From Phycisphaerae bacterium (GTDB lineage: Bacteria > Planctomycetota > Phycisphaerae > SM23-33), in contig JBKHHU010000003.1 in assembly GCA_046539045.1 (NCBI GenBank), positions 1 through 48,126 of the forward strand: a DNA stretch of 48,126 nt, read 5' to 3'. The position numbers and the translations under genes are program-made. The notes under the pieces were generated by a model. It was not told the DNA's origin. It worked only from the letters and a program-made list of their open reading frames with translations, and did not search any database. How positions within the stretch are numbered: position 1 is the first letter of the stretch; every line of letters starts with the position of its first letter. Positions 12,436 through 38,841 of the stretch are shown here, one piece after another.

Positions 12436-12467
12436 TAGCGCCGCCGGTACTTCGCCGGACGGCGCTA
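12436..12467 (-). terminator. Hairpin overlapping the last stop codon of the large minus-strand operon
   Basis: tagcgccg/cggcgcta stem plus inner ccgg/ccgg. There is no clear U-tract. A second hairpin, ggcaatgc/gcattgcc, lies at 12348-12367. Confidence 0.4.
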
Positions 12468-14024
12468 CTTGCGGTAGGCCAGCGCCGCAGTCGGGCACGC
12501 CTCCACGCACTCGTCGGCCACGCCGGCCAGGGCCTTGCCCAATTCCCGATCGAACGGAACCGCGACCTGCACCTGGAACCCCCTGCCGACAAACGTCAAG
12601 CCGAGATCCTGCTTGTGCTCCTCGGTGATCCGGACGCACAGGCCGCAGGCGATGCATTTGCCGGACTCGTAGACCACGTCGGCCGGGGTGTACTGCCGCT
12701 CGAAGAGCCGACGCCCGCCGCGATAACGCGACGGTTTGGCATCGTATTCATCCGAGTAGTCACGCAGCTTGCAGTTGTCGGGCTTGAGACATTCGCAGTG
12801 CAGACACCGCGCGGATTCGATCTTGGCGGCCTTGTCGGAAAGGCCCCGATCGTCTTCCGGTTGCTGGCGGGAACTCGGGTTCACACCTTCCATGAACCGG
12901 GCCATTTCGTCGTCCTGCAGTTTGCCGATGTGCGTAGACATCTTCTTGGGGATGCCGGTCGGTTCGCTTCCACCGAGGTACTGATCGATCGCGGCGGCGA
13001 TTTCCTTGCCCTGCTGCATGGCACGGACGGACATCTTGCCGCACGGACGGATAGCTTCGCCACCGGCGAAGATATCGTCCTTGCTCGTGCGATAGCTGCC
13101 CTGCTCGATATGGACCCCGAATCGGGAGGTCGCCAGCCCGAAGGCATTTGCCTGCTCGGCGGAGGTCTTTCCGGCAGCGTAAACCACCGCATCGTACTCG
13201 GATTCCAACTCCGCCAGGGAGACGTCTTCACCGACGGTCACGCCCGTGCGGAACTCGGCCCCCATGTTCTCGATGGCCTTGATCTCGGCGTCCAGCACCT
13301 CTCGGGGGAGGGCGTCGGCGTCAACGCTGTATCGGAGTTCGCCACCAAGCTGGCTGCGGGCTTCGAAGACGACCGGCGCGTGTCCGCGGATGAGCAGATA
13401 GTACGCAGCCGAGAGCCCGCACGGTCCGGCACCGACGACGGCGACTCTCTTTCCGCTGGAGGAAGCTCGCTTGGGCGTATAGGGAAGAGACTCGGCCATG
13501 TCCGCGTCGGCAACGTAGCGTTTGAGGAGCATGATCGAGACGGCCTGGTCCCGCTGGTTGCGGCGGCAGGCTTTCTCGCATGGAGCCGGACAGACCCTGC
13601 CCAGCACTCCGGGCAACGGGATATCGGCCTTGACGGTCCGGATGGCGTCATCTAGCTTACCTTCGGCGATCTGCCGGATCATCAGCGGGATGTTCATGTC
13701 GGCCGGGCAACCGGTGTGACAGGGCGCGACGCAGTCGCCGGCGTGATCGCTGAGCAGCAGTTCCAACGCTACCCGCCGGGCTTCGCGAACCTCGTCACTC
13801 TCGGTGTAGATCCGCATTCCCTCCACGGCCTGGGTAGCACAGGAAGGCGCCAGGTTGTCTCTGCCCGCTACCTTGACCACGCAGACGAAACAGGACGTCT
13901 GCGGCTCGAGGCCTTTGCGATAGCACATGGTGGGGATGTCGATCCCCTGCCGGCGGGCGGCCTGCAGAATCGTTGTCCCATCGGGGACGGTTACTTCTTT
14001 GTCGTTGATCCAGATCGTCGGCAT
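12465..14024 (-). CDS. Flavo-iron-sulfur oxidoreductase: HydA/NuoG-type N-terminal FeS domain, GltD/NfnB-like FAD module and C-terminal ferredoxin (StnC-like, shortened)
   Basis: IPTMC..SCFVCVV..PSC (2Fe-2S), LLLSDHAGDC, APCHTGCP..GRVCPAPCEKAC, VVGAGPCG, IFAGGE, RCLHCEC and KCIACGLC..CPTAAL. Start taken at MPTIWIND (ATG 14024). Confidence 0.85.
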   Translation of the reverse strand: MPTIWINDKEVTVPDGTTILQAARRQGIDIPTMCYRKGLEPQTSCFVCVVKVAGRDNLAPSCATQAVEGMRIYTESDEVREARRVALELLLSDHAGDCVAPCHTGCPADMNIPLMIRQIAEGKLDDAIRTVKADIPLPGVLGRVCPAPCEKACRRNQRDQAVSIMLLKRYVADADMAESLPYTPKRASSSGKRVAVVGAGPCGLSAAYYLLIRGHAPVVFEARSQLGGELRYSVDADALPREVLDAEIKAIENMGAEFRTGVTVGEDVSLAELESEYDAVVYAAGKTSAEQANAFGLATSRFGVHIEQGSYRTSKDDIFAGGEAIRPCGKMSVRAMQQGKEIAAAIDQYLGGSEPTGIPKKMSTHIGKLQDDEMARFMEGVNPSSRQQPEDDRGLSDKAAKIESARCLHCECLKPDNCKLRDYSDEYDAKPSRYRGGRRLFERQYTPADVVYESGKCIACGLCVRITEEHKQDLGLTFVGRGFQVQVAVPFDRELGKALAGVADECVEACPTAALAYRK

Positions 14025-14038
14025 GTTTGATTGTTCGC

Positions 14039-16429
14039 TTACTTGCTTTTGGCGGGCTTGGACTTTTCGGCCTTGGTCGGCAGCCCGGAACGGATTTCGA
14101 TCGCATTGACAGGGCAGATAGTCTTGCACCCGCCACAGCGGACGCACGCTTCATCGTCGATCTCGTGGACTTCCAGCACCCTCGGCTCGATCGCGTCGGC
14201 AGGACAGACCTGGGCACACTTCGTGCAGCCGATACATTCGTCGGTGACGACGAAGTGGATCATGTCCTTGCACTTGCCGGTCGGGCATCGGCCGGCGATG
14301 TGGGCTTCGTACTCGGAGCGGTAATATCGCAACGTGGAGAGCACCGGGTTGGGCGCACTCTTTCCGAGTCCGCAGAGGCTGTTGTTCTGGACCATCCTGC
14401 CGAGATGCTGCAGTTCCTCGATGTCGCCCTTCTTGCCCTCGCCGCGGCAGAGACGCTCAAGGATGTCCAGCATTCGCCGGGTTCCGATACGGCAGAAGGT
14501 GCACTTGCCGCAGGACTGGTCCTGCGTGAACTCCAGAAAATACCGTGCGATTTCCACCATGCAGTCGTCCTCGTCCAGCACGACCAGCCCACCGGAACCC
14601 ATCATCGCCCCGACGTCTTTGAGCGCTTCGAAGTCAATGGGCGTGTCTCCCAGCGTAGCCGGGACGCACCCACCGGACGGCCCGCCAATCTGCACGGCCT
14701 TGAACTTCTTACCGTCAGGGATGCCGCCGCCGACTTCGAAGGTCACTTCGTTGATGGTGGTGCCCATGGGCACTTCGATCAGTCCGCCGCGTTCGACCTT
14801 CCCCGCCAGCGCGAAGACCTTCGTGCCCTTGCTCCGTTTGGTGCCGACCGCAGCGAACTTCTCCGGACTGTTGCGGAAGATCCACGAGACCATCGAGAGC
14901 GTCTCGGCATTGTTGACCAGCGTCGGCTTGCCCCACAGGCCGACCTCCGCCGGATACGGCGGACGCAGACGAGGCATCCCGCGGTTGCCCTCGATCGACG
15001 CGATCAGCGCGGTTTCTTCGCCGCAGACAAACGCGCCGGCACCTTCCATCACGCGGACGTTCAGGTTGAAACCGGTGCCGAAGAGGTCCTCGCCCAGGTA
15101 CCCGCGGTCTTTGCATTTCTCGATCGCGTCATTCATGCGGTCCACGGCGATCGGGTATTCGGCGCGGATGTAGAAGACCACTTCGTCTGCGCCGACGGCA
15201 TAGGCGGCGATGGCAGCACCTTCGATAATCCGGTACGGCTGGGACTCCAGCAGCATGCGGTCCATGAACGCGCCGGGATCGCCTTCATCGCCGTTGACGA
15301 CGACATACTTCTTCTTGCTGTCCTGGCCGGCCACGGTGGCCCACTTGACCGCAGTGGGAAAACCTGCTCCACCACGACCCCGCAGACCGGCCTTCTCCAC
15401 CATCTGGATTACCTCAGCGGGCACGTAATGGCGGAGGCACTGTTCGAAGGCAACGAACCCGTCGTACTTGAGATATTCATCGAGGTCATGCGGAATGGCC
15501 TGGCCGCAGTACTCGGTGGCAATGCGGACCTGCCTGCCGGTATAGTCGGCCACCGGACCGGTATGCACGTTCACTGCATATCGGCTCGCCGACCGCCAGC
15601 CTCGCTCGTCCAGCAACTGATCCAACGCCTTGTCGCACGCGCAGCGGACTTTCCCACCGACCTTGTCCGGCGAGAAATGGCTCATCACGATCGCCTTGGC
15701 ATCGCCGGGACGAACATTGGCGTACAGCGCGGGAGCCTTGCCCGGTTCGACTACCTCGACAAGCGGTTCCATGGCGCTGAAACCGGCACAGCCGACCTGC
15801 TTGACGACGGCTCGGACCTCTGTTTCGCGGATCGCGTCCAGCAATGCGTCGCGAACGCCCTCGCTGCCGTTTGCGACACAGCAGGTGTCCAGGCTGATGC
15901 GAATTTCACCCTTGGCCCCCTCGGGGACCAGGTCTTCACTTGCATCGCCCTTGGACTCGATGTACTCGATGAATTCATCCAGCACACGTCCCACTTCATC
16001 CGTGCCGACGTGCCCGAACGTGACATCGTCGATCTGAACCGCCGGTGCCAGCGTGCAACAGCCCAGACAGGCGACCTTCTCGACAGTGAACTTGCCTTCA
16101 GGGTCGGTATCCTCGCCCTCCGGCACGTCGAGATACTCGCAGAATGCATCGAAGACCGCGTCGGCATTCTTCACGAAACACGCGGTGCCGATGCAGACCT
16201 TGACCATATGTTCGCCGGCGGGCTTGTGTCGGAACTGCGTATAGAAGCTCGAGACACCGGTGATCTGTGCGGGACTGATTTCGGTCACCTCGCACAGGTG
16301 CTCCAGGGCTTCGGGAGGCAGGTAATGAAACTCCTCCTGCAGCGCCTGCAGCAGCGGGATGACATTCTCCCTACCGCGCCCGATCCGTTCGACGATCGCG
16401 TCAACTTGTGCCAGTTCGGCTGACGTCAT
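14039..16429 (-). CDS. Fused NuoE-NuoF (HydC-HydB-like) NADH/FMN-binding subunit with C-terminal 2x[4Fe-4S]
   Basis: NuoE part: VCIGTAC and ACLGCCTLAP. NuoF part: GLRGRGGAGFPT, NGDEGDPGAFMDR, GAGAFVCGEETAL, GGPSGG, SCGKCTFCRIG, LCGLG. Tail: CIGCTKCAQVCP and CVRCGGCKTICP. Confidence 0.92.
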   Translation of the reverse strand: MTSAELAQVDAIVERIGRGRENVIPLLQALQEEFHYLPPEALEHLCEVTEISPAQITGVSSFYTQFRHKPAGEHMVKVCIGTACFVKNADAVFDAFCEYLDVPEGEDTDPEGKFTVEKVACLGCCTLAPAVQIDDVTFGHVGTDEVGRVLDEFIEYIESKGDASEDLVPEGAKGEIRISLDTCCVANGSEGVRDALLDAIRETEVRAVVKQVGCAGFSAMEPLVEVVEPGKAPALYANVRPGDAKAIVMSHFSPDKVGGKVRCACDKALDQLLDERGWRSASRYAVNVHTGPVADYTGRQVRIATEYCGQAIPHDLDEYLKYDGFVAFEQCLRHYVPAEVIQMVEKAGLRGRGGAGFPTAVKWATVAGQDSKKKYVVVNGDEGDPGAFMDRMLLESQPYRIIEGAAIAAYAVGADEVVFYIRAEYPIAVDRMNDAIEKCKDRGYLGEDLFGTGFNLNVRVMEGAGAFVCGEETALIASIEGNRGMPRLRPPYPAEVGLWGKPTLVNNAETLSMVSWIFRNSPEKFAAVGTKRSKGTKVFALAGKVERGGLIEVPMGTTINEVTFEVGGGIPDGKKFKAVQIGGPSGGCVPATLGDTPIDFEALKDVGAMMGSGGLVVLDEDDCMVEIARYFLEFTQDQSCGKCTFCRIGTRRMLDILERLCRGEGKKGDIEELQHLGRMVQNNSLCGLGKSAPNPVLSTLRYYRSEYEAHIAGRCPTGKCKDMIHFVVTDECIGCTKCAQVCPADAIEPRVLEVHEIDDEACVRCGGCKTICPVNAIEIRSGLPTKAEKSKPAKSK

Positions 16430-18306
16430 TTTTTCTCACCAATGCAATACAGGTGGGTCCCGCCGCGGAGGAACATCTTTCCGGGCGCGAACGCAGGAGA
16501 CGCGTCGATATATTCGTCAAGCTCGTTGGTGCGAATGACTTTGAAGTCTTTGCCGGTTTGGACGACAATCACCTTCTTCCCGGCGAAGGTGACCAGTTTG
16601 TCGCCGACGACCGCCGGCGAGGCATAGGAGGCGCTTCCGGGCATCTCTTTTTCGTACAGCAGCGAACCATCTTTCATGTCGAAGCACAGCAGTGAATCGG
16701 TCGCGAAGACATACACAAACTTGCCGTCGCTGACCGGGCTGAGCGTATCCGGAATGGACGCGTATTCGAAATCGTCGCCCCAGTTGGTCCATTTTGTCTC
16801 GACGGTGTCCTTCTTGTCCACCGGAATCGCGTGGATACCCGAGTCGGCCATCATGGCGATTACATACCCGCCGGCGAAGATCGGTGAGGGTGCCACATCG
16901 CCTTCCAGAATCTCGCACTCCCAGATCATCTTGCCGTTCTCCGGGTCCCAGCCGGAAACCGACGGGGCACCGGAGACGACCACCTGGAACTCCTTGTCCT
17001 TCACCTGGGCGAGAATCGGGCTGGCCCATGTCGCGTCCGGCCGGTCCTTCTTCCAGAGCTGTTTGCCCGTGGCTGAGTCGTAGGCGCTGAGGGTGTATTC
17101 CCCGCCGTCGAACTGGACCAGCACCTTGTCCTTGTGGACCAGCAGGGATGCGCTGATGCCGTACATGTTGCCTTCCGGATCGGCGATCAGCTTGGCCCAG
17201 ACGTTCTTGCCGGTGTTGATATCAAATGCAGCCACTTCCCCGTTGGCAAAGTGGGCGTAGACCCGCTTGCCGTCGACCGCACAGGTCGGGGCAGCGTGCA
17301 TCTGTTTTTCCATCTGCTGGTAGTACGGGTAGTCCTTGGGGGCTTTCGGGTCGGACTTGTACGTACCGGTCCACAGCAGCTTGCCCGTGTCGACACTGAA
17401 ACAGTAGACCTCCCGCTTTTCCTTGCTTCCGCCACTGAGGAAGACCTTGTCGCCCCAGACAACCGGGCTGCTGAGCCCGGCCAGCGGGACTTTGGTCTTC
17501 CAGAGAATGTTCTTGCCGGTCTTCTCGTCGAATTCCAGCGGGATGTCTTTGTGCGGAGAGATCCCCGATCCGCCGAACCCGCGCCAGAACGGCCAGTTCT
17601 TCTGGAAGTCGTCGGGCCACTTCACATCGGCAGCGGCTACGGCAGTCTTCGTGCTCGAATCCGAGGTTTTCGCAACGCCCTCCTGCGTGGAGGTGTTGTC
17701 TTGAGTGGCGGCCACCTTTTGGGTGGTCTGGACGTTCTTGACCTGTTTGATGACCGGGGCTGCCGAGGCCTTGGACTCCAGATCCTCGAGCATCGCCATG
17801 ATCGTCGCGCGGTCCGTGACGTCGCCGGCACCGATAGCGCCGACGGCCCATACGGCCGCGGCGATCCCCAGAACCACAGCCGCGGCTCCCACGCCAAGTC
17901 GCATCCACAAACCGCCGGGCAGTTCCTGCGCGTCCGGACCCGGGCTCTTCCTGCGGGCGTTGAGCGTCACCCAAAGATGCCCCAGAAGCAGCACCAGGGC
18001 CGCTCCCACCACAGCCACAATCGTGCCTCTGCGGCGGAACTCCTGCCGGGCAAAATGTTCCTGTCTGATTCTCTGATCCATCGCCCGGTAAGCTTCCCGG
18101 ACGTCCGCAGTGCCGGTGGCTTCCACCTGAGCCCGCACTTCATCCAGTTGCGGTGCGTCGAGCGGCTCGTCCCCACCAACGTCGGTCAACTGCATGACCA
18201 GAAACCCGACGACGATGACAACGAAAGCAGCGGCCAGCAGCCCCCCTGCTCCGATCGCCAGCGACAGCACCCGCCGTGATTTGGTCTTGGTCTTTTCGTC
18301 ACTCAT
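16426..18306 (-). CDS. Membrane-anchored PQQ-like (BamB-fold) beta-propeller protein with 3 N-terminal TM helices
   Basis: Three hydrophobic segments and a Thr/Ala/Lys-rich linker, then NWPFWRG, repeated D/xGKxxW blades, SSPVV and ASPA motifs. ATGA-type overlap with both neighbours. Confidence 0.85.
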   Translation of the reverse strand: MSDEKTKTKSRRVLSLAIGAGGLLAAAFVVIVVGFLVMQLTDVGGDEPLDAPQLDEVRAQVEATGTADVREAYRAMDQRIRQEHFARQEFRRRGTIVAVVGAALVLLLGHLWVTLNARRKSPGPDAQELPGGLWMRLGVGAAAVVLGIAAAVWAVGAIGAGDVTDRATIMAMLEDLESKASAAPVIKQVKNVQTTQKVAATQDNTSTQEGVAKTSDSSTKTAVAAADVKWPDDFQKNWPFWRGFGGSGISPHKDIPLEFDEKTGKNILWKTKVPLAGLSSPVVWGDKVFLSGGSKEKREVYCFSVDTGKLLWTGTYKSDPKAPKDYPYYQQMEKQMHAAPTCAVDGKRVYAHFANGEVAAFDINTGKNVWAKLIADPEGNMYGISASLLVHKDKVLVQFDGGEYTLSAYDSATGKQLWKKDRPDATWASPILAQVKDKEFQVVVSGAPSVSGWDPENGKMIWECEILEGDVAPSPIFAGGYVIAMMADSGIHAIPVDKKDTVETKWTNWGDDFEYASIPDTLSPVSDGKFVYVFATDSLLCFDMKDGSLLYEKEMPGSASYASPAVVGDKLVTFAGKKVIVVQTGKDFKVIRTNELDEYIDASPAFAPGKMFLRGGTHLYCIGEKK

Positions 18307-19685
18307 GACTTCAAAACTCCGCCAATCTTGTTTCTTCGTTTTTTCTCGACGGGACAGTGCTCAAAGCACCGCCCGCACGCCAGGCACAGCGACCGGTTCG
18401 GCTCGTATCCTTCACGGTACCGACGGATGTACGTGCCGATCAGCTTCCCGACAATCATTAAACCCAGAAGGCCGCCCAGAAGGGCCGTGGCAAAGGAAAT
18501 TGTACTGGTCAGGCTGACGGCATCTTCATAGAGAACCTTCTTGTCTTCACCCTGGGCACGCCAGGCTTCGCTGGGGGTCTGTACGTCGTCGTCTTCCACG
18601 GGCTTATCGACCAGTCCGAGGTTCTCCGACCAGACCTGATCTGCCAGGCGGACACGCGGATGCAGTTGCGATACCGGTTCGCCCGCAAGCCAGCCCAGCG
18701 CCGCGGCGACGGCGATCACCAGCGGCGAAATCACCAGCAGCCCTGCCACCGCTTTTTTGTCCCGGACAAGGCCCTTGTCTTTCTTCCCGCCGGTCGGCGG
18801 GTCAATAGCGTTGAACGGGCAACTGTGTTCGCAGAGACGGCACTGAACACACTCATCCGGGGTGATCTTCGCATGCCAGGCACTGAACCGGGAAGTGACG
18901 CGGAAGATGGCTCCCAGCGGACACAGGAACCGGCAGTACGGGCGGGCAATGAATACGCCCACCAACAGAAACACGATGCCCAGCGCCAGCAACAGCATGT
19001 CGACGCGGCCGGTGAAGCCCTGCTGGCCGCTGACAGCCCCGGTAACGCCGGCCATGTGCAACCATTGCCCGACCGGCAACAGCCGGAAGAATGAAACGAA
19101 CGGGTCGTACCGGCAGATCAGGAAGCCTCCGCCCACGCCGGCAAGAATTACAGCCAGACCGAGGTAGACCCACGCCATCATCGACAGCCCGCCCTCGAGC
19201 CACCGCGGCACACGGATCGGCTTGATGACGAACAGGTCCTGAATCGCGCCCAGCGGGCAGACGGCTGCACAGAATGTCCGTCCGTGGATCAGCGAGAACA
19301 GCACCGGTATGGCGAAAAAGGCAACGATCGCCAGCGGAACATAGTAGCCCGGGTCGCACAGACCTGCAGAGACGTTCTGCACCGCACCGATGGAACAGAC
19401 GCACCCCAGACGGATGAATCCGAACCACAGAAGCGCACCCACCATCAGCACGGCAATCCATATCCGCTTGCGGACAACCAGCACCAACCAGCCCGCGGCC
19501 AGCATGAACAGGACTAGAACGCCCACATCCAGGTATTCCCACAGCGTGTGACGAGCATCCGGAGTTTCCGTCTCCGGGATCTCGTATTCCTCAAACTGCG
19601 GAGTCTGACCCGGGACCTGGGCGACTGCAAATGCAGACGGGAGAAGGACCGCCGCCATCAAACAAAGAACTAATAGGTGACGCAT
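18303..19685 (-). CDS. NapH/MauN/RdxA-like multi-TM 4Fe-4S-binding membrane protein
   Basis: Signal peptide and many TM helices. GRTFCAAVCPLGAIQD, RPYCRFLCPLGA, CVQCRLCEHSCP and CLACGRCFEHCP. Confidence 0.88.
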   Translation of the reverse strand: MRHLLVLCLMAAVLLPSAFAVAQVPGQTPQFEEYEIPETETPDARHTLWEYLDVGVLVLFMLAAGWLVLVVRKRIWIAVLMVGALLWFGFIRLGCVCSIGAVQNVSAGLCDPGYYVPLAIVAFFAIPVLFSLIHGRTFCAAVCPLGAIQDLFVIKPIRVPRWLEGGLSMMAWVYLGLAVILAGVGGGFLICRYDPFVSFFRLLPVGQWLHMAGVTGAVSGQQGFTGRVDMLLLALGIVFLLVGVFIARPYCRFLCPLGAIFRVTSRFSAWHAKITPDECVQCRLCEHSCPFNAIDPPTGGKKDKGLVRDKKAVAGLLVISPLVIAVAAALGWLAGEPVSQLHPRVRLADQVWSENLGLVDKPVEDDDVQTPSEAWRAQGEDKKVLYEDAVSLTSTISFATALLGGLLGLMIVGKLIGTYIRRYREGYEPNRSLCLACGRCFEHCPVEKKRRNKIGGVLKS

Positions 19686-20306: not shown

Positions 20307-20577
20307 GACGGCGGATCCTTTCCTTCAACTGCCTGTGCGAGACCGCCTGTGGCAGATAGCAGCTATCGCCACGGCTGCAGCTCCTGCAGGCATAGTCGTT
20401 GATGCAGGTTTCCTTATCGCGGTCGACGCCTTTGGCATTGATGCTTCGCACACCCAGCGTTCCGGTGATCGCGGCGAGCCCGCCCAAGCCGGCCAGCCTT
20501 CCGAATTTCCGAAACGCTTCCCGTCGGCTGATCCGCCGCTGGTGGGCTGCGTCTTGTCTGGTCGATTTATCTTTCAT
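20299..20577 (-). CDS. Small twin-arginine membrane protein with a 4-Cys motif
   Basis: SRREAFRK followed by a hydrophobic helix. C-x5-C-x2-C-x5-C-x-LP motif. Overlaps both neighbours. Confidence 0.75.
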   Translation of the reverse strand: MKDKSTRQDAAHQRRISRREAFRKFGRLAGLGGLAAITGTLGVRSINAKGVDRDKETCINDYACRSCSRGDSCYLPQAVSHRQLKERIRRHG

Positions 20578-21623: not shown

Positions 21624-21648
21624 ATTGGGGAATGCCTTGGGCTTCTGA

Positions 21649-23088: not shown

Positions 23089-23169
23089 TTCCAGATAAAG
23101 GCCATTCCTCTACTCTCTACCATAACACATCACCGTGGCAGACGTACCGCAGAACAGGCAAAAAAACCG

Positions 23170-27242: not shown

Positions 27243-27246
27243 GTCC

Positions 27247-28557: not shown

Positions 28558-28617
28558 CGAATCCGTCCTCTCGGATAGTTCACAACACGTCCCACCGCGC
28601 CGCGAACAGGCGCCGGG

Positions 28618-30084: not shown

Positions 30085-30186
30085 TTCACTTTAGCCCGCT
30101 TCGGAGGCGGAAGCAAATCCGCTTGAAGCGCAGGATAACTTCATCTAAGGAACGTCTGAACGGTAGGGTAAGTTCCGCAGAATCAT

Positions 30187-31068
30187 TTACTCGGTCAGCA
30201 GGCCGAGCCCGAGCAGCCCGTAGAACGTGAACTCGCAATCGACTTCTCGTTCGCCGCGGTACCCGCGGAAGGCGCCCCGGCCGGTCCACAGTTCATCCAT
30301 GAAATCCAGGCAGGGCTCGCGGAACGACTCCAGCGATCGCCGGGCCAGCGACAACGCCTGCAGCGTCACGGCCGTGGAGAGCAGGTCCGGCATGGGCGCA
30401 TCCGGGATCGCCAGAAATCCTCCGGACTCGCAGAACCGCTTCTCCAGCCAGTTCAGCGTTTCCGGGCGGACCTGTCTGTCGAACTGGTGATGGACGACAA
30501 CCGCGGCGGCGGTGTTGGGCGTTGTGGGCACGGGGAACTCCGCCGAGTTGGTGTAGGCGCCGTCCGGCGTGGCGAGACCCTCAAGGCGATCGAACAGCGC
30601 GTCGACGTCGGCAACGGGCATTGCGGTATCTTCACAGACGCCGACGGCGAAAAAGCTGGCGTAAGCGCTGCTGTGAAGCTGGTTGGGCTCTTCGGCGTAC
30701 CCACCGTCCTCGGCGCGGAACCGGTCGAGTTGTCGGTGGATCCGCTGAGCCGCTTCCGTACCGGCCAGTCCTTCCGGAAGGGCCGCCAGTGCCCGCGCCA
30801 GGCAGCCGAGATGGACCAGATCAAGCGTCGCCGGATCGAACCCATTCAGATACTCGCGCACGCCGCTGGGGATCGGTGCTTCGAGGGACGCAAGCGACTG
30901 CAGCGCAAAGGCCGAGTAATACAGATCCGAATGCGCCGCCCTTCCGCGAAAGCCTCCGTCTTCGCACTGAAGCGACAGGAGGAAATCGGCCACCAGATCG
31001 GCAGACTCACGCAGCGGAATCCGAGCCCGACCGGCTGCCGCCCTCATTTGTCGCGTCATGTTCTTCAC
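30187..31068 (-). CDS. Prenyltransferase/squalene-oxidase-repeat (alpha/alpha)6 barrel protein
   Basis: QW-like repeats LQCEDGGF, FRAEDGGY, ATPDGAY, FCESGGF and TGRGAF, each followed by a DLYYS/DLLST/DCEFT-type helix. Only 293 aa, with no DxDD motif. Confidence 0.85.
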   Translation of the reverse strand: MKNMTRQMRAAAGRARIPLRESADLVADFLLSLQCEDGGFRGRAAHSDLYYSAFALQSLASLEAPIPSGVREYLNGFDPATLDLVHLGCLARALAALPEGLAGTEAAQRIHRQLDRFRAEDGGYAEEPNQLHSSAYASFFAVGVCEDTAMPVADVDALFDRLEGLATPDGAYTNSAEFPVPTTPNTAAAVVVHHQFDRQVRPETLNWLEKRFCESGGFLAIPDAPMPDLLSTAVTLQALSLARRSLESFREPCLDFMDELWTGRGAFRGYRGEREVDCEFTFYGLLGLGLLTE

Positions 31069-32710
31069 AGCAGGTGAAACCCTCGGCCTCTCTGAATACC
31101 TTGGCGATCATCTTCCGCAGCAGGCCCTTAAGCGAAAGATTGTCCAGTCGACACAGGGCGCGGATCGCCTCTGCCTTGTAGCCTTCCAGCAGCGACTCGG
31201 TCACCGCTCGAACCCGCAGGTCTTTGAAGATCGCCGTCCAGCGCGCCGGGTCGGTATCGAAGCGCTCCCCGCCGCACCACAGTTCCTCAATGAGCTTCCT
31301 GTCTTCACCGTCGGCCCGTTCCCACGCAACAGCCAGCACCACGCTGGGGCGATTGGCCATCACGTCCGACGGATCTTCGCTGCCGTAGAAGTCCTGCAGG
31401 TCATCGCGGACCTGGTAGGCGATGCCCAGCGCTTCGCTGTAGTGACTCAGCACATCGCGGACCGCATCCGGAGCGTCGGCAAGAATGGCTCCGAGTTGCA
31501 GCGCGACCTCGAATGCCGGAGCGGTCTTTCCGCGGAAGATTTCCAGCACATCGGCAACGTGCAGCGGCTGACGCTGGCGCGCCCAACAGAGTTCGGCACC
31601 TTGTCCGATGCAGAGTTGGCGGTGCCCATCGGCGGCAACTTGCATCATGTCCGCTCGCTTCGCCGCGGGCAGGCCGGTCTCGGCCAGCAGACGGTATCCG
31701 TCGCCCAGCAGCAGGTCGCCGATGTTGATCGCCACGGCCTGCCCGTGCTCGACGTGGAGGGTTTTCTCTCCATAGCGAGTGTCGTCGCCGTCTTCGATGT
31801 CGTCGTGAACCAGCGAGGCCTTGTGGAAACATTCCACACCCAGCGCCACCCGCCGCAGATCCTGCTGGTCCAGTTCGTCACCAGCCAGCGCGCGGGCCGT
31901 GCAGACCGTCAGCACCGGGCGCCACCGCTTGCCCGCGCGGGCCATCCAGTCCACCGCGATCTTGCCGGTCTTGCCGCTGACCGGCCCCAGCAGTTGCTCC
32001 ATCGCATCGCGATCGAACCAGCGGATCACCTCCCGCCGGATCGATTCGATATCAAGCATGGAACTGCCCTCTTCGCGAGTCAACTGAATGGCCTCCCACA
32101 GCCAGTCCAGATCACACATCGTTTCGTGACATCCGTCGTACAGCAGCGGAATCGCAATGCCCGGAACGGCTGCTGCCTCCATGTATTTATACACGCTTTC
32201 GAGCGAATCCAGGCAGCTTACTCCGATTACCGCCTGCACTTTCCCGCTGGCGATCAGGCTGGTGACCACCGGCGAGCCCTCCGCCACCAGCACCACGTAA
32301 CCCAACCGCTCCGCTTCCGACTTGGCTGCACCGATCATGCACTGGCCGCATTCGCGACAGAGCAGCCCGAGTTCATCGAACCCGGCCGGGCAGGTGGATT
32401 TTCGCAGGCACTGCGGGAGTAACAGCAACCGGCGGTCGCAGGGGATTCCGCCAAGGCTGTCCCGCCAGGTCTCGTTATTGATCAGGACCGCCAACCAGTC
32501 GCGGGAATCAGCCGCGAGGGCCTCGCTTTCGATCAAGCGATCGGATTCCTTCCGCAACTCTTCCAGGCTTAACGGAGGTACAAGCTTGTGCCGACGTACG
32601 TACTCGCTCACCAGGCGCAGCATGCGGTCGCGCTGTGGTTTGTGGGCGGGAACGCCCTTCATTGGCGGCCTGCACGTGAACTTCATTTGCTTCGATAACG
32701 AATCAGCCAT
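31007..32710 (-). CDS. Trans-isoprenyl diphosphate (polyprenyl) synthetase with N-terminal DUF116-like Cys-rich domain
   Basis: GKRWRP, FARM FHKASLVHDDIED, AINIGD, GQGAEL, KTAPAF and SARM YQVRDDLQD. N-terminal RRLLLLPQCLR..CPA..CRECGQC..GVSC. Start MADSLSK after a GAGGA RBS. Confidence 0.9.
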   Translation of the reverse strand: MADSLSKQMKFTCRPPMKGVPAHKPQRDRMLRLVSEYVRRHKLVPPLSLEELRKESDRLIESEALAADSRDWLAVLINNETWRDSLGGIPCDRRLLLLPQCLRKSTCPAGFDELGLLCRECGQCMIGAAKSEAERLGYVVLVAEGSPVVTSLIASGKVQAVIGVSCLDSLESVYKYMEAAAVPGIAIPLLYDGCHETMCDLDWLWEAIQLTREEGSSMLDIESIRREVIRWFDRDAMEQLLGPVSGKTGKIAVDWMARAGKRWRPVLTVCTARALAGDELDQQDLRRVALGVECFHKASLVHDDIEDGDDTRYGEKTLHVEHGQAVAINIGDLLLGDGYRLLAETGLPAAKRADMMQVAADGHRQLCIGQGAELCWARQRQPLHVADVLEIFRGKTAPAFEVALQLGAILADAPDAVRDVLSHYSEALGIAYQVRDDLQDFYGSEDPSDVMANRPSVVLAVAWERADGEDRKLIEELWCGGERFDTDPARWTAIFKDLRVRAVTESLLEGYKAEAIRALCRLDNLSLKGLLRKMIAKVFREAEGFTCCEEHDATNEGGSRSGSDSAA

Positions 32711-34301
32711 GGGAGTTCCTCTCGGCCTCCGCCGCCAGTGCCACGGCAGCGCGGTCACAACATTGTTGCGTCGTGCGGCGAATTCTCCGTCGCTCGCGGC
32801 GAAAATTTCTGCGCCACCCGGCGACTTCGGTTTTGCCCAGCGTCTGGATCAGGTTGCGTTTGAACCAGGCGACGCCCCCGGCCCGCTGGTTGTCGTAGTA
32901 GAGCTTCGGCGCGCGGCGGAAGTTCATCTCGTAGCACCGTTCGTACAGGTCAAGATGATCTTCCCGCATGCGGGACAGGTCGAAACGGGCGTGTCGACGG
33001 TCCTGTCGGTACGGCTCGTGGAAGACCGGGAACACCACCGCGCCCATCCTGTCAAATTCGTCCACGAGCGTCTGCGTCGCGGCGACGTCGGCTGGGGTTT
33101 CCCCTTCCAGCCCCAGCACCAGGCTGAAGACCGGGAAGAAACCCGTTTCGGTGAGTTTCCAGCCGGCTTCGGTGACCGCCTCGGCCCAGCAATCCGGGTC
33201 CAGCCTGCCGAGCTTACCCGGACCGATGGATTTCACCAGCCGTCCGGAGGCGCTCTCGACGCCCAGGTTAACCCAGAGATAATCAGTCCGTGCCGACCAG
33301 GTCAGCAGGCGGCGAATTTCGGCCAGCTGTTCCTTCGAGTACTGCAGCACGGAGGTTACGTTGGCGTGGTCGATCTGCATGAACCGCAGTTGGCCGACCT
33401 CCCGCATCCGCGTCAGCAGGTCTCGTAAGGCCTCGAAGTTGACCTTCGCTCCGGTCGCGCCGTAGCGGAAGAAGTCTTCGCTGGAATTGACAACCGAGCG
33501 AGATCCTGCGCGGTAGTTGGCCTCCAGATCGCTCAGCACGACATCGGCCGGGACGTGCTGCATCGGTCGGTCACTCATCGTGCAGAACTCGCAGCCATAC
33601 CCGCAGCCGCGAGACAGCTCCAGCACGCCGAGCATGGCCCCGCCGCGGATCGGGCGTAGCCTCTCAATGGCGGTTCCCTTCTCCGCTATATGATCGGCCA
33701 CCGGCTTGCCCGCCAGGATGTCCTCAATCAGTTGCGGGCCCTGGTTCTCGAAATAGCCTTCGAAGATCGTGTCCACGCCGAGACGTCGGGCTTCATCGCG
33801 ATCGCCGGTGAATTGCCATGCCCCCGCCCCACCGACGATCACCTTGAAACCAAAGGTCTGCTTTGCGCCTTTCAGCATCAGCAGCGTTTCTTCGGTGAGT
33901 ACTTCCGTATAAAGCCTGCCGCTCCAGAAAGCGCTGGTGGTGGTGTTGCTCATTCCCCGGCCGAGCGGATCGGATGAACTGAACAAGACCGCCTCGGTCC
34001 GGGAGCTCAAAAGACCCGGTAGCGATTCGGGCGTGGCGACGACGACATCCTCCTCGGTCAGATCGGTCTCCGCCAGCAGACTGGCCTCGACGCGACGCAC
34101 GCCGATGGGCGCCTGGGACGCCCTGCCGTCCGGCGAAACGGGTACCGGTTTGCTCAGGAGGTGCTTCCAGGCGAACCGGGGAACCTTCGTCGTCTGCATC
34201 GAGGCGAAGATGCCCTCGAACAGGATCGAGTAATCACCCGCCAGCGTCCGGTCCGCAACCAGGATCACCCGGGGAGAAAGCTGCCGGCGGTCGGAACTCA
34301 A
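32703..34301 (-). CDS. Radical SAM protein with N-terminal B12-binding-like domain (archaeal-type family, resembles GDGT ring synthase Grs)
   Basis: ELSRGCGYGCEFC (CxxxCxxC), VILVADRTL, APIGVRRVEASL, DPLG, FKVIVGGAGAW, NLGVES and LGLEGETP. Start set at TTG 34301, overlapping the upstream TGA. Confidence 0.88.
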   Translation of the reverse strand: MSSDRRQLSPRVILVADRTLAGDYSILFEGIFASMQTTKVPRFAWKHLLSKPVPVSPDGRASQAPIGVRRVEASLLAETDLTEEDVVVATPESLPGLLSSRTEAVLFSSSDPLGRGMSNTTTSAFWSGRLYTEVLTEETLLMLKGAKQTFGFKVIVGGAGAWQFTGDRDEARRLGVDTIFEGYFENQGPQLIEDILAGKPVADHIAEKGTAIERLRPIRGGAMLGVLELSRGCGYGCEFCTMSDRPMQHVPADVVLSDLEANYRAGSRSVVNSSEDFFRYGATGAKVNFEALRDLLTRMREVGQLRFMQIDHANVTSVLQYSKEQLAEIRRLLTWSARTDYLWVNLGVESASGRLVKSIGPGKLGRLDPDCWAEAVTEAGWKLTETGFFPVFSLVLGLEGETPADVAATQTLVDEFDRMGAVVFPVFHEPYRQDRRHARFDLSRMREDHLDLYERCYEMNFRRAPKLYYDNQRAGGVAWFKRNLIQTLGKTEVAGWRRNFRRERRRIRRTTQQCCDRAAVALAAEAERNSHG

Positions 34302-35578
34302 GAGCAGCCCTTCCCGTCGCAAGCGCATCGGCCGCCGGTGGAAGGCTCGGCCGGCTCGTCATGGCACGCGCAATCTGGGCCGCAATCGCCAGCCGTCTCA
34401 TCCGAGTGACAGGCACAATCCGAACCGCAGTCGGTGGAGACGGAGTCTTCCGAAGCAGAATTCGAACAACCGCAGTCGGCAGCCCGGGGCGGCGGGGCCG
34501 CGACGGATTTCGCCCGTGCCTGCAGCTGCTCAGCAGAGACTGTCCGGAGCACCTCATCGGGGATATCCAGCGTCTCCTGCAGACTGTCGGCGGTGGAGCA
34601 ACCGCAGCCGGAGGCGAGGTCCTCCGCCGGGGCGAAACGCCGTCTGGCCCCGTCGCTTCGGTTCCGAAGTCTGGCATAGATGTCGCCGGAAGCGATCTCC
34701 TCGTCATCGACCTTGACTGCTTCGCCGGCCTGTTCGTCCGAACCGTTGATGGGTGCCTTGTCGTATTTCGGGAAAACGATCGCCGCCGTCGGGCACATGC
34801 GGGCACAGGCCGGGCAGTTGGTCTTGCACTTGTCCGGACTGGTGACGGTCACCTTCCCGTCCACGAGCGAGTAGACCCCGAACAGGCAGAAGCTCATGCA
34901 TTTCTTGCAGTCGATGCACCGGGAGCGATCCAGCACGGGGAACCAGGGGATCCACTCCGAATCGGCCTTCGCCTGGTGTTCTGCAGCGAACTGCAGCACC
35001 CGGCCGGCCACCTGCTCGGGCTCGATGGCGGCCGAGTTGATATCCAGCACGGCCTTGTCGCCGCATCCGATCTGCGGGCAGTCAATGCGAACCACCGCCC
35101 GCCCCGTCGGCTGGTAGTCGTCGTTGCCTTCTCCGAAGGCGGTCACTGCCACGCCCGCTTCCAGGAGAGCCTTGGCGATGTGGAACATTTCCGGGCTCGA
35201 TTCGCCCAGCAGCACCTCGACCGCTTCAGGACCGGCCGGGCTGACCGGGGCAGTCGATGCGTCCTGTTCGGCCAAGGCGCCGGTAATCCCGCAGTGGCAC
35301 ATCTCCCGCATATTCAACACGTTGCACTCGCCGAGATCCAGGCCCGGAAGGTTCCGCACCGCTCGGGCAAAGCATGCGATGACTGTCGAGCCTGCGGGAA
35401 CATCCCCCAGTACGAACGGACTCTTGGCGGCAGCCAGTCCGCACAGGTCCGGTACCGCGGTGAACGGGCGATTCATGCCGATCAGCCCCGCCAAAACGCC
35501 ATCGGCAGTCTCCTGATCGATCACGTCGGAATGCCGACAGAAGCACATGATAGTTCGATTCTCTGTTCGGTCCGGCAC
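34298..35578 (-). CDS. Multidomain ferredoxin-family protein with Cys/His-rich acidic tail
   Basis: N-terminal CFC..DLC..IAC domain. PWFPVLDRSRCIDCKKCMSFCLFGVY..CKTNCPACARMCP (2x4Fe-4S). Tail carries DCGxDCACH repeats. Confidence 0.85.
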   Translation of the reverse strand: MPDRTENRTIMCFCRHSDVIDQETADGVLAGLIGMNRPFTAVPDLCGLAAAKSPFVLGDVPAGSTVIACFARAVRNLPGLDLGECNVLNMREMCHCGITGALAEQDASTAPVSPAGPEAVEVLLGESSPEMFHIAKALLEAGVAVTAFGEGNDDYQPTGRAVVRIDCPQIGCGDKAVLDINSAAIEPEQVAGRVLQFAAEHQAKADSEWIPWFPVLDRSRCIDCKKCMSFCLFGVYSLVDGKVTVTSPDKCKTNCPACARMCPTAAIVFPKYDKAPINGSDEQAGEAVKVDDEEIASGDIYARLRNRSDGARRRFAPAEDLASGCGCSTADSLQETLDIPDEVLRTVSAEQLQARAKSVAAPPPRAADCGCSNSASEDSVSTDCGSDCACHSDETAGDCGPDCACHDEPAEPSTGGRCACDGKGCS

Positions 35579-35617
35579 GCGTTTACTCCTCTGTCCGCTG
35601 GACGGACAGCCAGGGAA

Positions 35618-35992
35618 CTACTGTTTCTCGACACACCAGACGGCCTTCATGCCGCGAATGTATATCCTGTCGCCTTCAAACACGGGGCAGCTGCGGAGCT
35701 CTTTCAGTGTATTGCGGCTTACTTCCTTCGGTTTGCCGCTGTTCTTGTCCGGACCAAGCAGTAGGTTCGGTTCGGACTGCACGAAAAGCCGATCGCCCAC
35801 CAGGATCGGCGAACTCTCCACAGGTGACTTCCAGCGCACGTTGCTCTGGGCGGACCAGTCAACCGCCGGATTGGCTTTCGGATAGGATCCGGTTCCGTCG
35901 GTCCGCCAGCCGCACGGCGAGCCGGCCAGTGCAGTGACACTGATAAGCGCAGCTGTCGACAGCATACAATAGCTGACCGTTTTGGGCTTCAT
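35618..35992 (-). CDS. Internally deleted PQQ-like propeller (signal peptide plus first and last blades only); possible pseudogene
   Basis: Signal peptide, GWRTDGTG..DWS..NVRWKSP..SSPILVGDRLFV joined almost directly to RSCPVFEGDRIYIRG..VWCV. Only 124 aa. Confidence 0.65.
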   Translation of the reverse strand: MKPKTVSYCMLSTAALISVTALAGSPCGWRTDGTGSYPKANPAVDWSAQSNVRWKSPVESSPILVGDRLFVQSEPNLLLGPDKNSGKPKEVSRNTLKELRSCPVFEGDRIYIRGMKAVWCVEKQ

Positions 35993-36145
35993 GAGTCATT
36001 CAACCTCTCGAGGTGGTGTAAGGTGTCGGCCCGATTAGGCGAAGATTGCGGTTTGCCCCAATGCGAGGAGGGCTGAAGCTTCGGAAGCGGTCAACGACCC
36101 ACCGCCAAGGCTCCAGCCCTTCCCCGGATGTCATTCCAGACGAAA

Positions 36146-37408
36146 TTATTTGCTGAGGTCCAGGCAGATCAACCGGCCTTCGTGCGTGCGGCAGTACAGT
36201 TTGCCGTGGGCGAGGACCGGTATTGTCCAGCACAGACCATCCAGCACCTTGGCTTTGGAGATCATCTTGAGGCCCTTCGGAGACGCCTCGGAAATCGCCA
36301 GATCGCCCTTCTGTCCCAGGATGATCAGTTTGCCGTCGGCGGCGATCAGCGACCCCTTGCCGTAGCCGCGCTGGGCCCACTGCTCCTCTCCGGTTTTGAA
36401 GTCGATGCACTGCAACCGATTGCCGTCCACGCCGTAGAGATACCCGTCGATCAGGATCGAAGTGTTCATGTGGTTGGACATGTGGTTCCGCTTGCGCCAG
36501 ACTTCCTTCGGCGCGGGGGTGACCTTTACCAGCGCTGAACCGTTCCTATACCCGCCGGCGACGAAAACGTACCCGTCGTGGTAGATCGGCATGACCGCGC
36601 TGACCCCGTACTTGATCTTCAGCGGGTACAGGCCGAATTCCTTGCCCGTCTTCGGATCGAGAATCAACACGCCGTCGCCCGGGAACGTGGCCAGGTATTC
36701 TTTTCCGTCCTGCGTGAACAGGTATGGGGAGGAATACGCAGCCGGGTGCTTCTTCGACTTCCAGATGACATCGCCGGTTTTCTTGTTCATCGCGACAATC
36801 ACGCCGAGGTCCCAGATGAGCATGTCGCCTTTGATCATCGGCGAACACGACCAGCCCCACTGGCCGGGGTTGTTAAAGTCATTGGCGTTCTTCGACCAGA
36901 CGACGTCTCCGGTATCCGCTTTGAGGCAGTACATATCGCCCTTGCGGCTCAAGGTGAACACGAGATTGCTTTCCGGGTCGACCGTCGGCGTCATACCGGG
37001 GCCCCCGTTGCGCCGGGCGGCGGAGGCCTTGTAGGTATGTTTCCAGATTTCCTTGCCGGTATCGGCGTTCAGGCACCAGACGATGTCCTGCCCGCCCTTG
37101 TTGCCCATCGTGTAAAGTCTGTCGCCGACGACCGAGAAGGAACTGAACCCATCGCCGAGTTCGGCAGACCAGATCTCCTTCGGTCCTTTGTCGGACCATT
37201 TGGTCGTCCAGTTGCTCTCGGACGTCTTGCCGGTCCTTTCCGGCCCGCGGTACTGCGGCCAGTCCTTTCCGGTATTGGCAGTGTTCTCACCGGGTTCGGT
37301 CTTTACAGTTTCCGTGCCCTGACAAGCCATCGTCACGACCAGAATCGCTACGAGACCGAAGAAGGGCCCCGCGCAACGAGCGGTTCGTATTCGGAACATG
37401 TTCAGCAT
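36146..37408 (-). CDS. Exported, probably lipoprotein, PQQ-like beta-propeller protein
   Basis: Signal ending VTMAC, DWPQYRGPERTG, GKEIW blades and C-terminal GKLYCR..LICLDL. Confidence 0.87.
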   Translation of the reverse strand: MLNMFRIRTARCAGPFFGLVAILVVTMACQGTETVKTEPGENTANTGKDWPQYRGPERTGKTSESNWTTKWSDKGPKEIWSAELGDGFSSFSVVGDRLYTMGNKGGQDIVWCLNADTGKEIWKHTYKASAARRNGGPGMTPTVDPESNLVFTLSRKGDMYCLKADTGDVVWSKNANDFNNPGQWGWSCSPMIKGDMLIWDLGVIVAMNKKTGDVIWKSKKHPAAYSSPYLFTQDGKEYLATFPGDGVLILDPKTGKEFGLYPLKIKYGVSAVMPIYHDGYVFVAGGYRNGSALVKVTPAPKEVWRKRNHMSNHMNTSILIDGYLYGVDGNRLQCIDFKTGEEQWAQRGYGKGSLIAADGKLIILGQKGDLAISEASPKGLKMISKAKVLDGLCWTIPVLAHGKLYCRTHEGRLICLDLSK

Positions 37409-38747: not shown

Positions 38748-38841
38748 GTCGAAAAAACTCCCTTTCCGGTACTACCTAAGTGTAGCGGCGACAATGGACG
38801 GTAACCAATCGCGGCCCCGCGGATCGTCGGCCGGGGCGGCC

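Follow-up and report, generated by a model that had tools for sequence, protein, structure and literature searches.

The question raised by positions 12465-37408 of the window (the whole 48,126-nucleotide stretch analyzed here, which is contig JBKHHU010000003.1 of the Phycisphaerae bacterium assembly GCA_046539045.1) is whether isoprenoid, export and redox genes that stand in one continuous array also form one system. The source genome is a metagenome-assembled genome of 3.59 Mb in 338 contigs, 81% complete, and the window is one of these contigs in full. Listing of the open reading frames (ORFs) and Pfam/NCBIfam scans of the encoded proteins gave 18 genes, all on the minus strand, in the order and with the families described in the first-pass annotation, which had been made from the DNA letters and had proposed a single cluster coupling isoprenoid synthesis and tailoring to export and to a redox chain. 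However, the array consists of two separately conserved modules that tend to travel together, and not of one indivisible system. Module A (30187-35578) is a set of isoprenoid genes centered on a DUF116-polyprenyl diphosphate synthase fusion, and module B (12465-30084 plus the propeller gene at 36146-37408) is a set of redox and propeller genes. In the explanation that we prefer, and in which we place slightly more belief than doubt, the two conserved and separable modules lie end to end, one nested in the propeller genes of the other and probably co-transcribed with it. Module A would probably serve the synthesis of a ring-shaped isoprenoid lipid, and module B would probably conduct electrons out of the cytoplasm to proteins beyond the inner membrane. 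The genes are listed below from the low-coordinate end.

12465-14147, minus strand: BfuA/StnC/NfnA-like (GltD/StnC-like) iron-sulfur (FeS) flavoprotein; Pfam Fer2_4, Fer4_20, Pyr_redox_2, Fer4_Nqo3
14039-16429, minus strand: NuoE-NuoF fusion (BfuC-BfuB-like); Pfam 2Fe-2S_thioredx, Complex1_51K, NADH_4Fe-4S, Fer4
16426-18306, minus strand: prop626, a PQQ_2 beta-propeller behind three predicted N-terminal transmembrane (TM) helices (Pfam)
18303-19685, minus strand: NapH-like polytopic membrane FeS protein; Pfam Fer4_5/Fer4
19686-20306, minus strand: four-cluster ferredoxin with a twin-arginine (Tat) signal, N-terminus S-R-R-K-V-L-K, NapG-like by architecture
20299-20577, minus strand: predicted Tat 4-Cys protein of 92 amino acids (aa), with the motif C-x5-C-x2-C-x5-C, then LP
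20574-21623, minus strand: TM-anchored NHL-repeat propeller (Pfam NHL)
21649-23088, minus strand: prop479, a TM-anchored PQQ_2 propeller (Pfam) with conserved Cys and His residues
23170-26544, minus strand: double-FtsX MacB-like permease, 1124 aa; Pfam FtsX (twice) and MacB_PCD, TIGR03434 ADOP
26541-27242, minus strand: LolD/MacB-type ATP-binding cassette (ABC) ATPase; ABC_tran
27247-28557, minus strand: family 4 glycosyltransferase (GT4); Pfam Glycos_transf_1, Glyco_transf_4
28618-30084, minus strand: prop488, a TM-anchored PQQ_2 propeller (Pfam)
30187-31068, minus strand: single-domain alpha/alpha toroid barrel (Pfam PF00432), cytoplasmic by sequence and without a DxDD motif
31007-32758, minus strand: fusion of DUF116 with a trans-polyprenyl diphosphate synthase (DUF116-synthase); Pfam DUF116 117 bits (cut-off 25), polyprenyl_synt 161 bits (cut-off 27)
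32703-34328, minus strand: radical S-adenosylmethionine (SAM) enzyme with an N-terminal Rossmann-like domain; Radical_SAM 26.8 bits (below the cut-off of 29.5), CX3CX2C at C242/C246/C249
34298-35578, minus strand: 2x[4Fe-4S] protein of 426 aa (ferredoxin) with an N-terminal Cys domain, a ferredoxin core and a Cys-rich tail (Pfam)
35618-35992, minus strand: probable propeller remnant of 124 aa, recognized by reading of the sequence; no Pfam match
36146-37408, minus strand: prop420, a secreted PQQ_2 propeller of the module B type (Pfam)

The separation of the two modules is seen in genomes that hold one of them without the other. In a phylum sample of 301 genomes, each at least 85% complete except the source genome, the NapG-like protein was taken as the marker of module B and the DUF116-synthase as that of module A. 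Module B was present in 43 genomes and module A in 76: both in 30, B only in 13, A only in 46 and neither in 212. The corresponding numbers for 40 relatives were 21, 3, 5 and 11. The co-occurrence of the two halves in other genomes, which the first-pass annotation had set beforehand as a test of its proposal, is thus found both among the relatives and in the phylum. A single obligatory system is nevertheless not supported, since module B is complete in near-complete genomes with neither DUF116 nor a linked cyclase, and module A occurs without B in 46 of 76 genomes. None of five B-only genomes (98-99% complete) had a match to PF01976 and none had a cyclase orthologue, two of them giving weak partial cyclase matches (E ~1e-11). 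The single-contig genome G297 (99% complete) carries prop488-GT4-LolD-MacB-prop479-NHL-NapG-NapH-prop626-NuoEF-flavoprotein in the order of the window, with no match to PF01976 or to the cyclase.

The tendency to travel together is expressed by an odds ratio of 10.6 in the 301 genomes, a value not corrected for shared ancestry. Of the 24 families with module B, 16 include a genome that has both modules; of the 30 genomes with both, nine have them on a single contig, no more than 25 kb apart. The surroundings of the DUF116-synthase gene (up to 40 kb, less at contig ends) were also compared in 10 related genomes. Redox genes stand beside the isoprenoid genes in six of them, divergently in two, colinearly as in the window in one and directly after the synthase in two. 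The other four had the isoprenoid genes alone in the fetched region, which in one case was a contig of only 17 kb.

Module A was followed by an alignment-based scan of one genome per species (GTDB), which matched at least 594 species and from which the best 80 loci were kept; here and in the scan for module B, a gene was counted only in the loci with enough flanking sequence. The loci are mostly labelled Planctomycetota, Verrucomicrobiota and Lentisphaeria, and some Bacteroidales, Vicinamibacterales and others, labels which may be unreliable for metagenome-assembled genomes. Protein mapping and ORF clustering gave the layout of ferredoxin, radical SAM, DUF116-synthase, alpha/alpha barrel and then a cyclase. 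The ferredoxin is upstream of the synthase in 43/56 loci, a radical SAM gene is directly upstream of it in 41/60, the barrel follows it in 42/67, and the cyclase comes directly after the barrel in 35/62. In many aerobic genomes of the PVC bacteria (Planctomycetota, Verrucomicrobiota and allies), among which the module A cluster is widespread, genes for a GcvH-like protein, a CobW-like GTPase and a NifS-like cysteine desulfurase, none of which is in the window, precede module A; the top NCBIfam match of the CobW-like protein is "CobW-related selenoprotein" with 68.6 bits, below the cut-off of 180.

Module B was traced in 80 loci on metagenome contigs, anchored on the NapG-like protein. The order is one to three secreted propellers, prop479, NHL, a small ORF, NapG-like, NapH-like, prop626, NuoEF (the NuoE-NuoF fusion) and flavoprotein. 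The NapH-like gene is present in 47/49 loci, with prop626 after it in 40/42, NuoEF in 25/30 and the flavoprotein in 16/20; the NHL gene lies upstream of the NapG-like gene in 46/53 and prop479 upstream of NHL in 33/38. The block prop488-GT4-LolD-MacB, headed by prop488, is found either before prop479, as in the window, or after the flavoprotein gene. Among the 10 loci with long flanks on both sides, five have the ABC genes on either side and two have any module A gene. The permease accompanies module B in G297, G226 and several metagenome loci, and the GT4 does so in G297 as well, a genome without module A. Because the block recurs in module B loci, the GT4 and the ABC transporter go with the redox/propeller module B and not with the isoprenoid module A; the glycosylation and export of the isoprenoid by these proteins, as suggested in the first reading, are therefore not indicated. 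The gene order of the window is not due to chance, considering that the same genes stand together in the relatives, in the 80 species loci and in the 80 metagenome loci.

Within the window, the two modules are interlocked. A secreted propeller of the B type stands directly before the module A ferredoxin in the window and in loci L031, L076, L099, L103 and L177, and module A is thereby nested among module B genes. Many of the 18 genes overlap by 4-8 nucleotides or abut directly (16429/16426, 18306/18303, 19685/19686, 20306/20299, 20577/20574 and 26544/26541). Short gaps of 4 and 25 nucleotides are found at 27242/27247 and 21623/21649, and wider ones of 60-153 nucleotides near 23.1, 28.6, 30.1, 35.6 and 36.0 kb. 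The 124-aa ORF between the ferredoxin and prop420 has a signal-like N-terminus joined to the first and last segments of a PQQ_2-type propeller, and one weak match to it was found among the 80 species loci. It is probably a decayed and internally deleted copy of the neighboring propeller gene.

An integrated system of the kind proposed in the first-pass annotation has to be weighed against this arrangement. A lipid made by module A would there be glycosylated by the GT4, carried outward by the MacB-type transporter, and reduced or otherwise used by the periplasmic chain. Such a system would explain the strength of the association, the overlapping genes along much of the array and the nesting of A between B propeller genes, which is seen in the window and in L103, L177, L087, L109 and L118. 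It would also explain why the order polyprenyl synthase-barrel-cyclase-prop479-NHL-NapG-NapH recurs in records labelled Planctomycetota and in others labelled Bacteroidales. However, complete module B, including the GT4 and the ABC transporter, exists in genomes with neither DUF116 nor the linked cyclase, B is absent from 46 of the 76 genomes that bear A, the modules lie 880 kb apart in G338, and only two of the 10 long-flanked B loci contain a module A gene. We consider the integrated system unlikely and keep to two separable modules, whose proteins are described below.

The central protein of module A is the DUF116-synthase, for which a start at 32710 is likely and gives 567 aa. The two DDxxD motifs of its synthase part (D303-D307 and D436-D440) are invariant in the alignment, as are C101, C107, C118, C121, C124, C166 and C194 of the DUF116 part (PF01976, CxxCxxC). 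It is established that the residues before the first DDxxD motif govern the length of the prenyl product. The synthase has Ala/Ser at positions -5/-4 of this motif; four aligned C15/C20 synthases have Tyr/Phe at -5, and one trans-isoprenyl diphosphate synthase has Ala. These chain-length residues suggest a product longer than C20. Selenocysteine in the fusion was considered for eight matches with an in-frame TGA and was rejected, the TGA being an ordinary stop with the barrel gene right after it in all seven that were fetched.

The 426-aa ferredoxin corresponds to two separate genes elsewhere, with stop codons between the parts in all five long matches examined. Five species loci have a separate domain of ~125 aa (with C-x-C, PDLC and AC-x-PRAV motifs) and a 2x[4Fe-4S] protein of ~260 aa. 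The N-terminal domain of the ferredoxin had no Pfam match. The radical SAM enzyme reached 69 bits with TIGR04013, below the cut-off of 251, as the single hint of a cobalamin-dependent (class B) type, and the B12-binding domain PF02310 was not detected in it. The closest PDB chains to the profile of its family were of the RimO/MiaB type only (E ~3e-7), and assignment as a tetraether-type or other lipid radical SAM enzyme was not adopted. The slot between ferredoxin and synthase is occupied by two unrelated families according to lineage, a 408-aa SPASM/NirJ/HpnH-like protein in 32/62 loci and the kind found in the window in 9/60, which looks like non-orthologous replacement.

The barrel is modelled in the Atlas with a predicted template modelling score of 0.93. 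The Zn ligands of the protein prenyltransferase beta subunit are Asp, Cys and His. A 44-sequence alignment of the barrel has no invariant or near-invariant Cys and no conserved Zn ligands, and protein prenylation was set aside as the leading idea, there being no conserved Cys/His ligands and no alpha-subunit-like gene seen in the cluster. The Atlas near neighbors of both the barrel and the radical SAM protein fall in clusters dominated by Bathyarchaeota and other archaea, which hints that a part of module A is shared with archaea.

In other genomes the module A cluster usually ends in a DxDD class II cyclase of ~620-650 aa with both SQHop_cyclase_N and SQHop_cyclase_C, in keeping with the earlier guess that the product is cyclized. 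The window has no cyclase gene. The same genome has one on contig C279 (5686-9173 region, minus strand), which is 45% identical to a cluster-linked cyclase, has the motif intact as D-S-D-D (three other cluster-linked cyclases have D-A-D-D), and is the only cluster-type DxDD cyclase in this genome. It lies directly downstream of a gene for a B12-binding radical SAM protein, which has only 22% identity to the radical SAM protein of the window, and a hybrid sensor kinase and unrelated genes come next.

The linked cyclases score far below the squalene-hopene cyclase (SHC) model: 48-105 bits with TIGR01507 against a cut-off of 431, the C279 cyclase having 62 and the cluster-linked ones in relatives 48-88. 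Among 41 related genomes, SQS_PSY was present in three, none with a DUF116-synthase, and canonical SHC in two. Five complete or near-complete planctomycete genomes that carry module A were examined; all five also have canonical SHC and SQS_PSY elsewhere, and in four of the five the weakly scoring cyclase adjoins the synthase. A canonical hopanoid cluster was rejected because the linked cyclase stays below the SHC cut-off and is found in genomes that have true SHC and SQS_PSY genes besides; judged by sequence, module A is a pathway separate from that of the hopanoids. In the source genome there was no match above cut-off to MqnC, MenD or SQS_PSY, which is weak evidence at 81% completeness; the source organism may be without squalene and menaquinone synthesis.

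The cytoplasmic part of module B is related to the Stn/Nfn-Bfu enzymes. The flavoprotein, whose likely start is the ATG at 14024 (519 aa), has an N-terminal 2Fe-2S domain, Fer4_20, a flavin adenine dinucleotide (FAD) domain and a C-terminal FeS domain. Its closest PDB chains are 9bov_A, 9n5u_A (NfnA) and 8oh5_C (E 1e-90 to 1e-105), and the alignment spans only residues 6-291 and 419-671 of the chain. The ~130 residues which are missing (chain residues ~292-418) form the Rossmann domain for reduced nicotinamide adenine dinucleotide phosphate (NADPH); the FdhF-like C-terminal half is also missing, and the second GxGxxG of the PDB chains has no counterpart. The Lys aligned with StnC K170 is kept and the equivalent of R239 is Ala. 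Orthologue matches are equally short (516-536 aa). The "StnC-like" label of the first-pass annotation is thus right by homology, and wrong if it is taken to mean a Stn/Nfn-type NADPH transhydrogenase, a reading ruled out by the absence of the NADPH domain. This absence would leave the predicted complex of flavoprotein and NuoEF with a single NAD(P)H-type site, the NADH site of the NuoF part.

The NuoE-NuoF fusion has its NuoE domain at residues 1-155, an inserted 2Fe-2S-type domain and a C-terminal 2x[4Fe-4S] domain. It matches 9bov_B, 9n5u_B (NfnB) and 8oh5_B over residues 175-781 (E 1e-192 to 3e-196), and it has the features that define the BfuB/BfuC core, i.e., the site for flavin mononucleotide (FMN) and NADH, the N-terminal 2Fe-2S-type domain and the C-terminal 2x[4Fe-4S]. 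According to passages of PMC10482914 and PMC12018979, 8oh5 is StnABC and 9n5u is NfnABC.

The membrane part of module B is formed around the NapH-like protein, which scores 49.1 bits with TIGR02163 (NapH/MauN), below the curated cut-off of 213.05. Two CX3CP motifs (C139/C143-P and C251/C255-P) and two 4-Cys motifs (C279-C289 and C434-C444) are conserved in 47 sequences and invariant in a separate family alignment, and a CxC is also conserved; by the positive-inside rule the cluster motifs are predicted to face the cytoplasm. The NapG-like protein has four invariant 4-Cys motifs with 16 invariant Cys and is the best-conserved marker of module B, with 55-69% identity between lineages. NapG family models gave no match to it at E 0.001, and the likeness is one of architecture. 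For the small Tat protein, a regular expression found comparable ORFs between the NHL and NapG-like genes in 34/57 loci, some of which are off-frame noise. No CxxCH haem motif occurs among the 18 proteins. A complex prediction of the NapH-like protein with residues 560-796 of the NuoE-NuoF fusion scored 0.16 (mark 0.32).

The association of this membrane protein with the propellers is indicated by natural fusions. A NapH-like protein and a prop626-type propeller are fused in 22 database proteins of 915-1136 aa, one of which was aligned along the full length of prop626 (E 2e-81). These fusions are the strongest sign that the membrane FeS protein and a periplasmic propeller act together, and they lend support to the earlier proposal that an electron conduit serves periplasmic propellers. 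In the NHL protein, a G-C-C-N-P motif is conserved, and its C251/C252 are at least 90% conserved in 44 sequences. By its FtsX and MacB_PCD domains and its LolD-like ATPase, the ABC pair is of the MacB/LolCDE type (type VII). The ATPase reached 249.6 bits with TIGR02211 (LolD; cut-off 307.75) and 208 bits with the MacB model, and is by these scores a member of the superfamily and not an equivalog. Weak-match Pfam scans of the unassigned domains of both modules (the N-terminal, middle and C-terminal parts of the ferredoxin, the small Tat protein, the N-termini of prop626 and of the radical SAM protein, and the MacB periplasmic domains) gave nothing usable.

A second explanation for the vicinity of A and B in anaerobic lineages is a shared reductant, i.e., that low-potential electrons from NuoEF and the flavoprotein also feed the ferredoxin, the DUF116 FeS domain and the radical SAM enzyme of module A. 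Module A has three FeS/radical proteins that need a low-potential donor, and passages of PMC12018979 describe ferredoxin reduction by Bfu-type enzymes at the C-terminal domains of the B and C subunits. The A-only genomes are compatible with it as well, showing that A can use other donors. However, A usually abuts the propeller end of B and not the NuoEF end, and proteins of A and B were found neither fused nor in direct contact. Almost every B locus has NuoEF and the flavoprotein next to NapH-like/prop626, an arrangement that suggests the membrane wire as their partner. We regard a shared reductant as improbable. That the adjacency has no functional reason, unrelated operons having been brought together by common lineage and habitat, is very improbable: both modules are common in the same phylum, each works alone in many genomes and the statistics carry no correction for ancestry, but the enrichment is also found within families (in family f25, A is in 4/4 genomes with B and in 2/13 without it) and the adjacency recurs in at least three arrangements (divergent, colinear and nested).

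Returning to the two-module explanation, we infer the function of both modules, and with it the direction of electron flow, the docking of NuoEF on the NapH-like protein and all substrates and products. In module B, NADH would be oxidized at the FMN of the NuoE-NuoF fusion, the homologue of the BfuC/BfuB core. The truncated BfuA-like FeS/FAD subunit and the 2x[4Fe-4S] of the fusion would pass the electrons to the cytoplasmic clusters of the NapH-like protein, from which they would cross the membrane to the Tat-exported four-cluster ferredoxin and the small Tat 4-Cys protein. They would end on the membrane-anchored beta-propeller and NHL proteins with conserved Cys/His, reducing a substrate in the periplasm or envelope, and the GT4 and the MacB-type ABC transporter would be frequent accessories. 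In module A, the synthase domain would make an all-trans prenyl diphosphate, probably longer than C20, and the DUF116 FeS domain, the ferredoxin and the radical SAM enzyme would carry out redox tailoring. The barrel and the DxDD class II cyclase encoded on C279 would then cyclize the product to a squalene-independent polycyclic terpenoid.

Several points weigh against this explanation. The link of the C279 cyclase to the genes of the window is drawn from synteny in other genomes. The tailoring chemistry may differ by lineage, since the radical SAM families are unrelated. The association of A and B, as stated above, is uncorrected for ancestry. Co-transcription is suggested by the overlapping genes; no RNA run was listed as holding 26500-36400, and a promoter/terminator scan of 20000-39500 found 3 and 11 candidates against shuffled expectations of 3.5 and 14.5, which is at or below chance and therefore uninformative. 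We know of no established redox role for the propeller and NHL families (BamB-like PQQ_2 and NHL), and these proteins could be scaffolds. E. coli NapH is thought to be a quinol dehydrogenase. The electron donor to the NapH-like protein could likewise be quinol and not the NuoEF complex, and three UbiA-family genes are present in the genome.

A bolder form of the explanation can be formulated, which we offer as a long shot. Module B would be a quinone-independent electron-export machine, whose Bfu-type core splits the electrons of NADH between cytoplasmic ferredoxin and the NapH/NapG-like wire, and energy would be conserved by Cys-bearing propeller/NHL enzymes that reduce an envelope substrate. 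Where module A is present, this substrate would be its squalene-independent polycyclic polyprenoid, which would stand in for hopanoids and be completed outside the cytoplasm.

Both modules have a wide distribution and seem not to have been studied. Module A occurs in the species and genome numbers given above, and the module B marker in 43 of the 301 genomes and on metagenome contigs of many different samples. A cyclic terpenoid formed by module A without squalene, if confirmed, would be a new lipid class for PVC bacteria and would give DUF116 its first functional context. Should module B indeed carry NADH-derived electrons over the membrane to propeller proteins with neither quinones nor haems, fermentative anaerobes would have a new means of discarding or exploiting reducing power outside the cytoplasm, and BamB-like and NHL propellers would have a first redox role. 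The modules are carried by cultured planctomycetes and Verrucomicrobia.

The genes flanking the array are ordinary. Those on the low-coordinate side encode SecA (1400-5116, minus), a GFO/IDH/MocA oxidoreductase (5333-6451, plus), a heparinase II/III-like protein (6518-8362, minus) and an SRAP peptidase (11579-12592, minus). The low-coordinate boundary is sound because the next gene beyond 12465, that of the SRAP peptidase, is unrelated to the cluster. Upstream of the array, the Pyr_redox_2 gene at 37545-38747 was kept beside the cluster in 0/80 loci elsewhere. The ORF at 38772-40304 (minus strand, 510 aa) was rejected as a spurious antisense frame: it has no family match and an Arg-rich low-complexity translation, and it lies opposite 38931-40538 (plus). 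The real genes there are on the plus strand, a polytopic membrane protein without a Pfam match at 38931-40538 and a 312-aa ORF at 40535-41473, whose translation, judged by eye, resembles a family-2 glycosyltransferase; a methyltransferase follows at 41478-42197.

In accordance with the first-pass annotation, we found no characterized pathway onto which the gene set maps, and our literature searches brought up no description of either module; the supplementary lists of PMC8238504 and PMC9304861 may include module-B-like clusters. Module A is an undescribed, putative terpenoid cluster around the DUF116-synthase fusion. A passage of PMC5898192 predicts that DUF116 (arCOG02078) is a metal-binding electron-transfer domain and notes its fusion with a polyprenyl synthetase in Pirellula staleyi. 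The domain in the window is alike in being Cys-rich with CxxCxxC. The passage notes the fusion alone, and the ferredoxin, radical SAM, barrel and cyclase partners and the link to module B go beyond it. A figure legend in a preprint (10.1101/2025.11.21.689855) shows DUF116, IspH, SHC, HpnH and a polyprenyl synthetase together in one Bipolaricaulota cluster.

Two terpenoid routes resemble module A. The hopanoid pathway consists of the squalene synthase HpnCD, squalene-hopene cyclase and the radical SAM protein HpnH. It shares with module A the clustering of a prenyl synthase, a radical SAM protein and a DxDD class II cyclase, and the radical SAM protein of most module A lineages is weakly similar to HpnH (E 6e-10). 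However, the module A cluster has no SQS_PSY gene, and its DUF116 domain, barrel and ferredoxin are without hopanoid counterparts. Polyprenoid cyclization independent of squalene is exemplified by the C35 sesquarterpenes of Bacillus. A squalene-independent route to bacterial triterpenes, that of the gromomycins from hexaprenyl diphosphate, is presented in a passage of PMC12105684, where a polyprenyl synthase and a protonation-type cyclase likewise share a cluster that has no squalene synthase. The proteins are unrelated to those of module A: as described there, the gromomycin cluster has Rieske oxygenases, PAP2 and P450, whereas DUF116, radical SAM and the alpha/alpha barrel are not part of it.

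The cytoplasmic part of module B is most similar to the Stn/Nfn-Bfu enzymes (BfuABC). The NuoE-NuoF fusion matches their B chains, including the 2Fe-2S-type and 2x[4Fe-4S] domains, and the flavoprotein matches StnC/NfnA across the 2Fe-2S, Fer4_20 and FAD parts. The differences are that in module B the C and B subunits are fused, that its A-like subunit is without the NADPH Rossmann domain and the FdhF-like half, and that its genes sit among those for membrane and periplasmic proteins. The main text of the Bfu family survey (PMC9304861) does not mention NapH.

The membrane part belongs with NapGH, NosGH and other NapH-like modules. As in module B, genes for periplasmic proteins and an ABC transporter neighbor those of the NapH-like pair in nos clusters. 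NapH-like proteins are described in a passage of PMC8238504 as modular parts for transmembrane electron transfer, whose reactions are mostly unknown. What module B has in common with the modules treated there is a Tat four-cluster ferredoxin and, as its partner, a polytopic PF12801 FeS protein in which CX3CP and 4-Cys motifs occur twice each. In contrast to NapGH/NosGH, the NapH-like protein of module B has two additional TM helices and its second cluster at the extreme C-terminal end, and is without the FMN-binding domain. Its partners are BamB-like and NHL propellers instead of a molybdo- or copper-enzyme, and it is encoded beside a NuoEF-type NADH module, whereas NapGH/NosGH rely on the quinol pool. 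We infer that module B is a new variant of the NapH-like extracytosolic electron-transfer systems, fed from a truncated Bfu-type NADH module.

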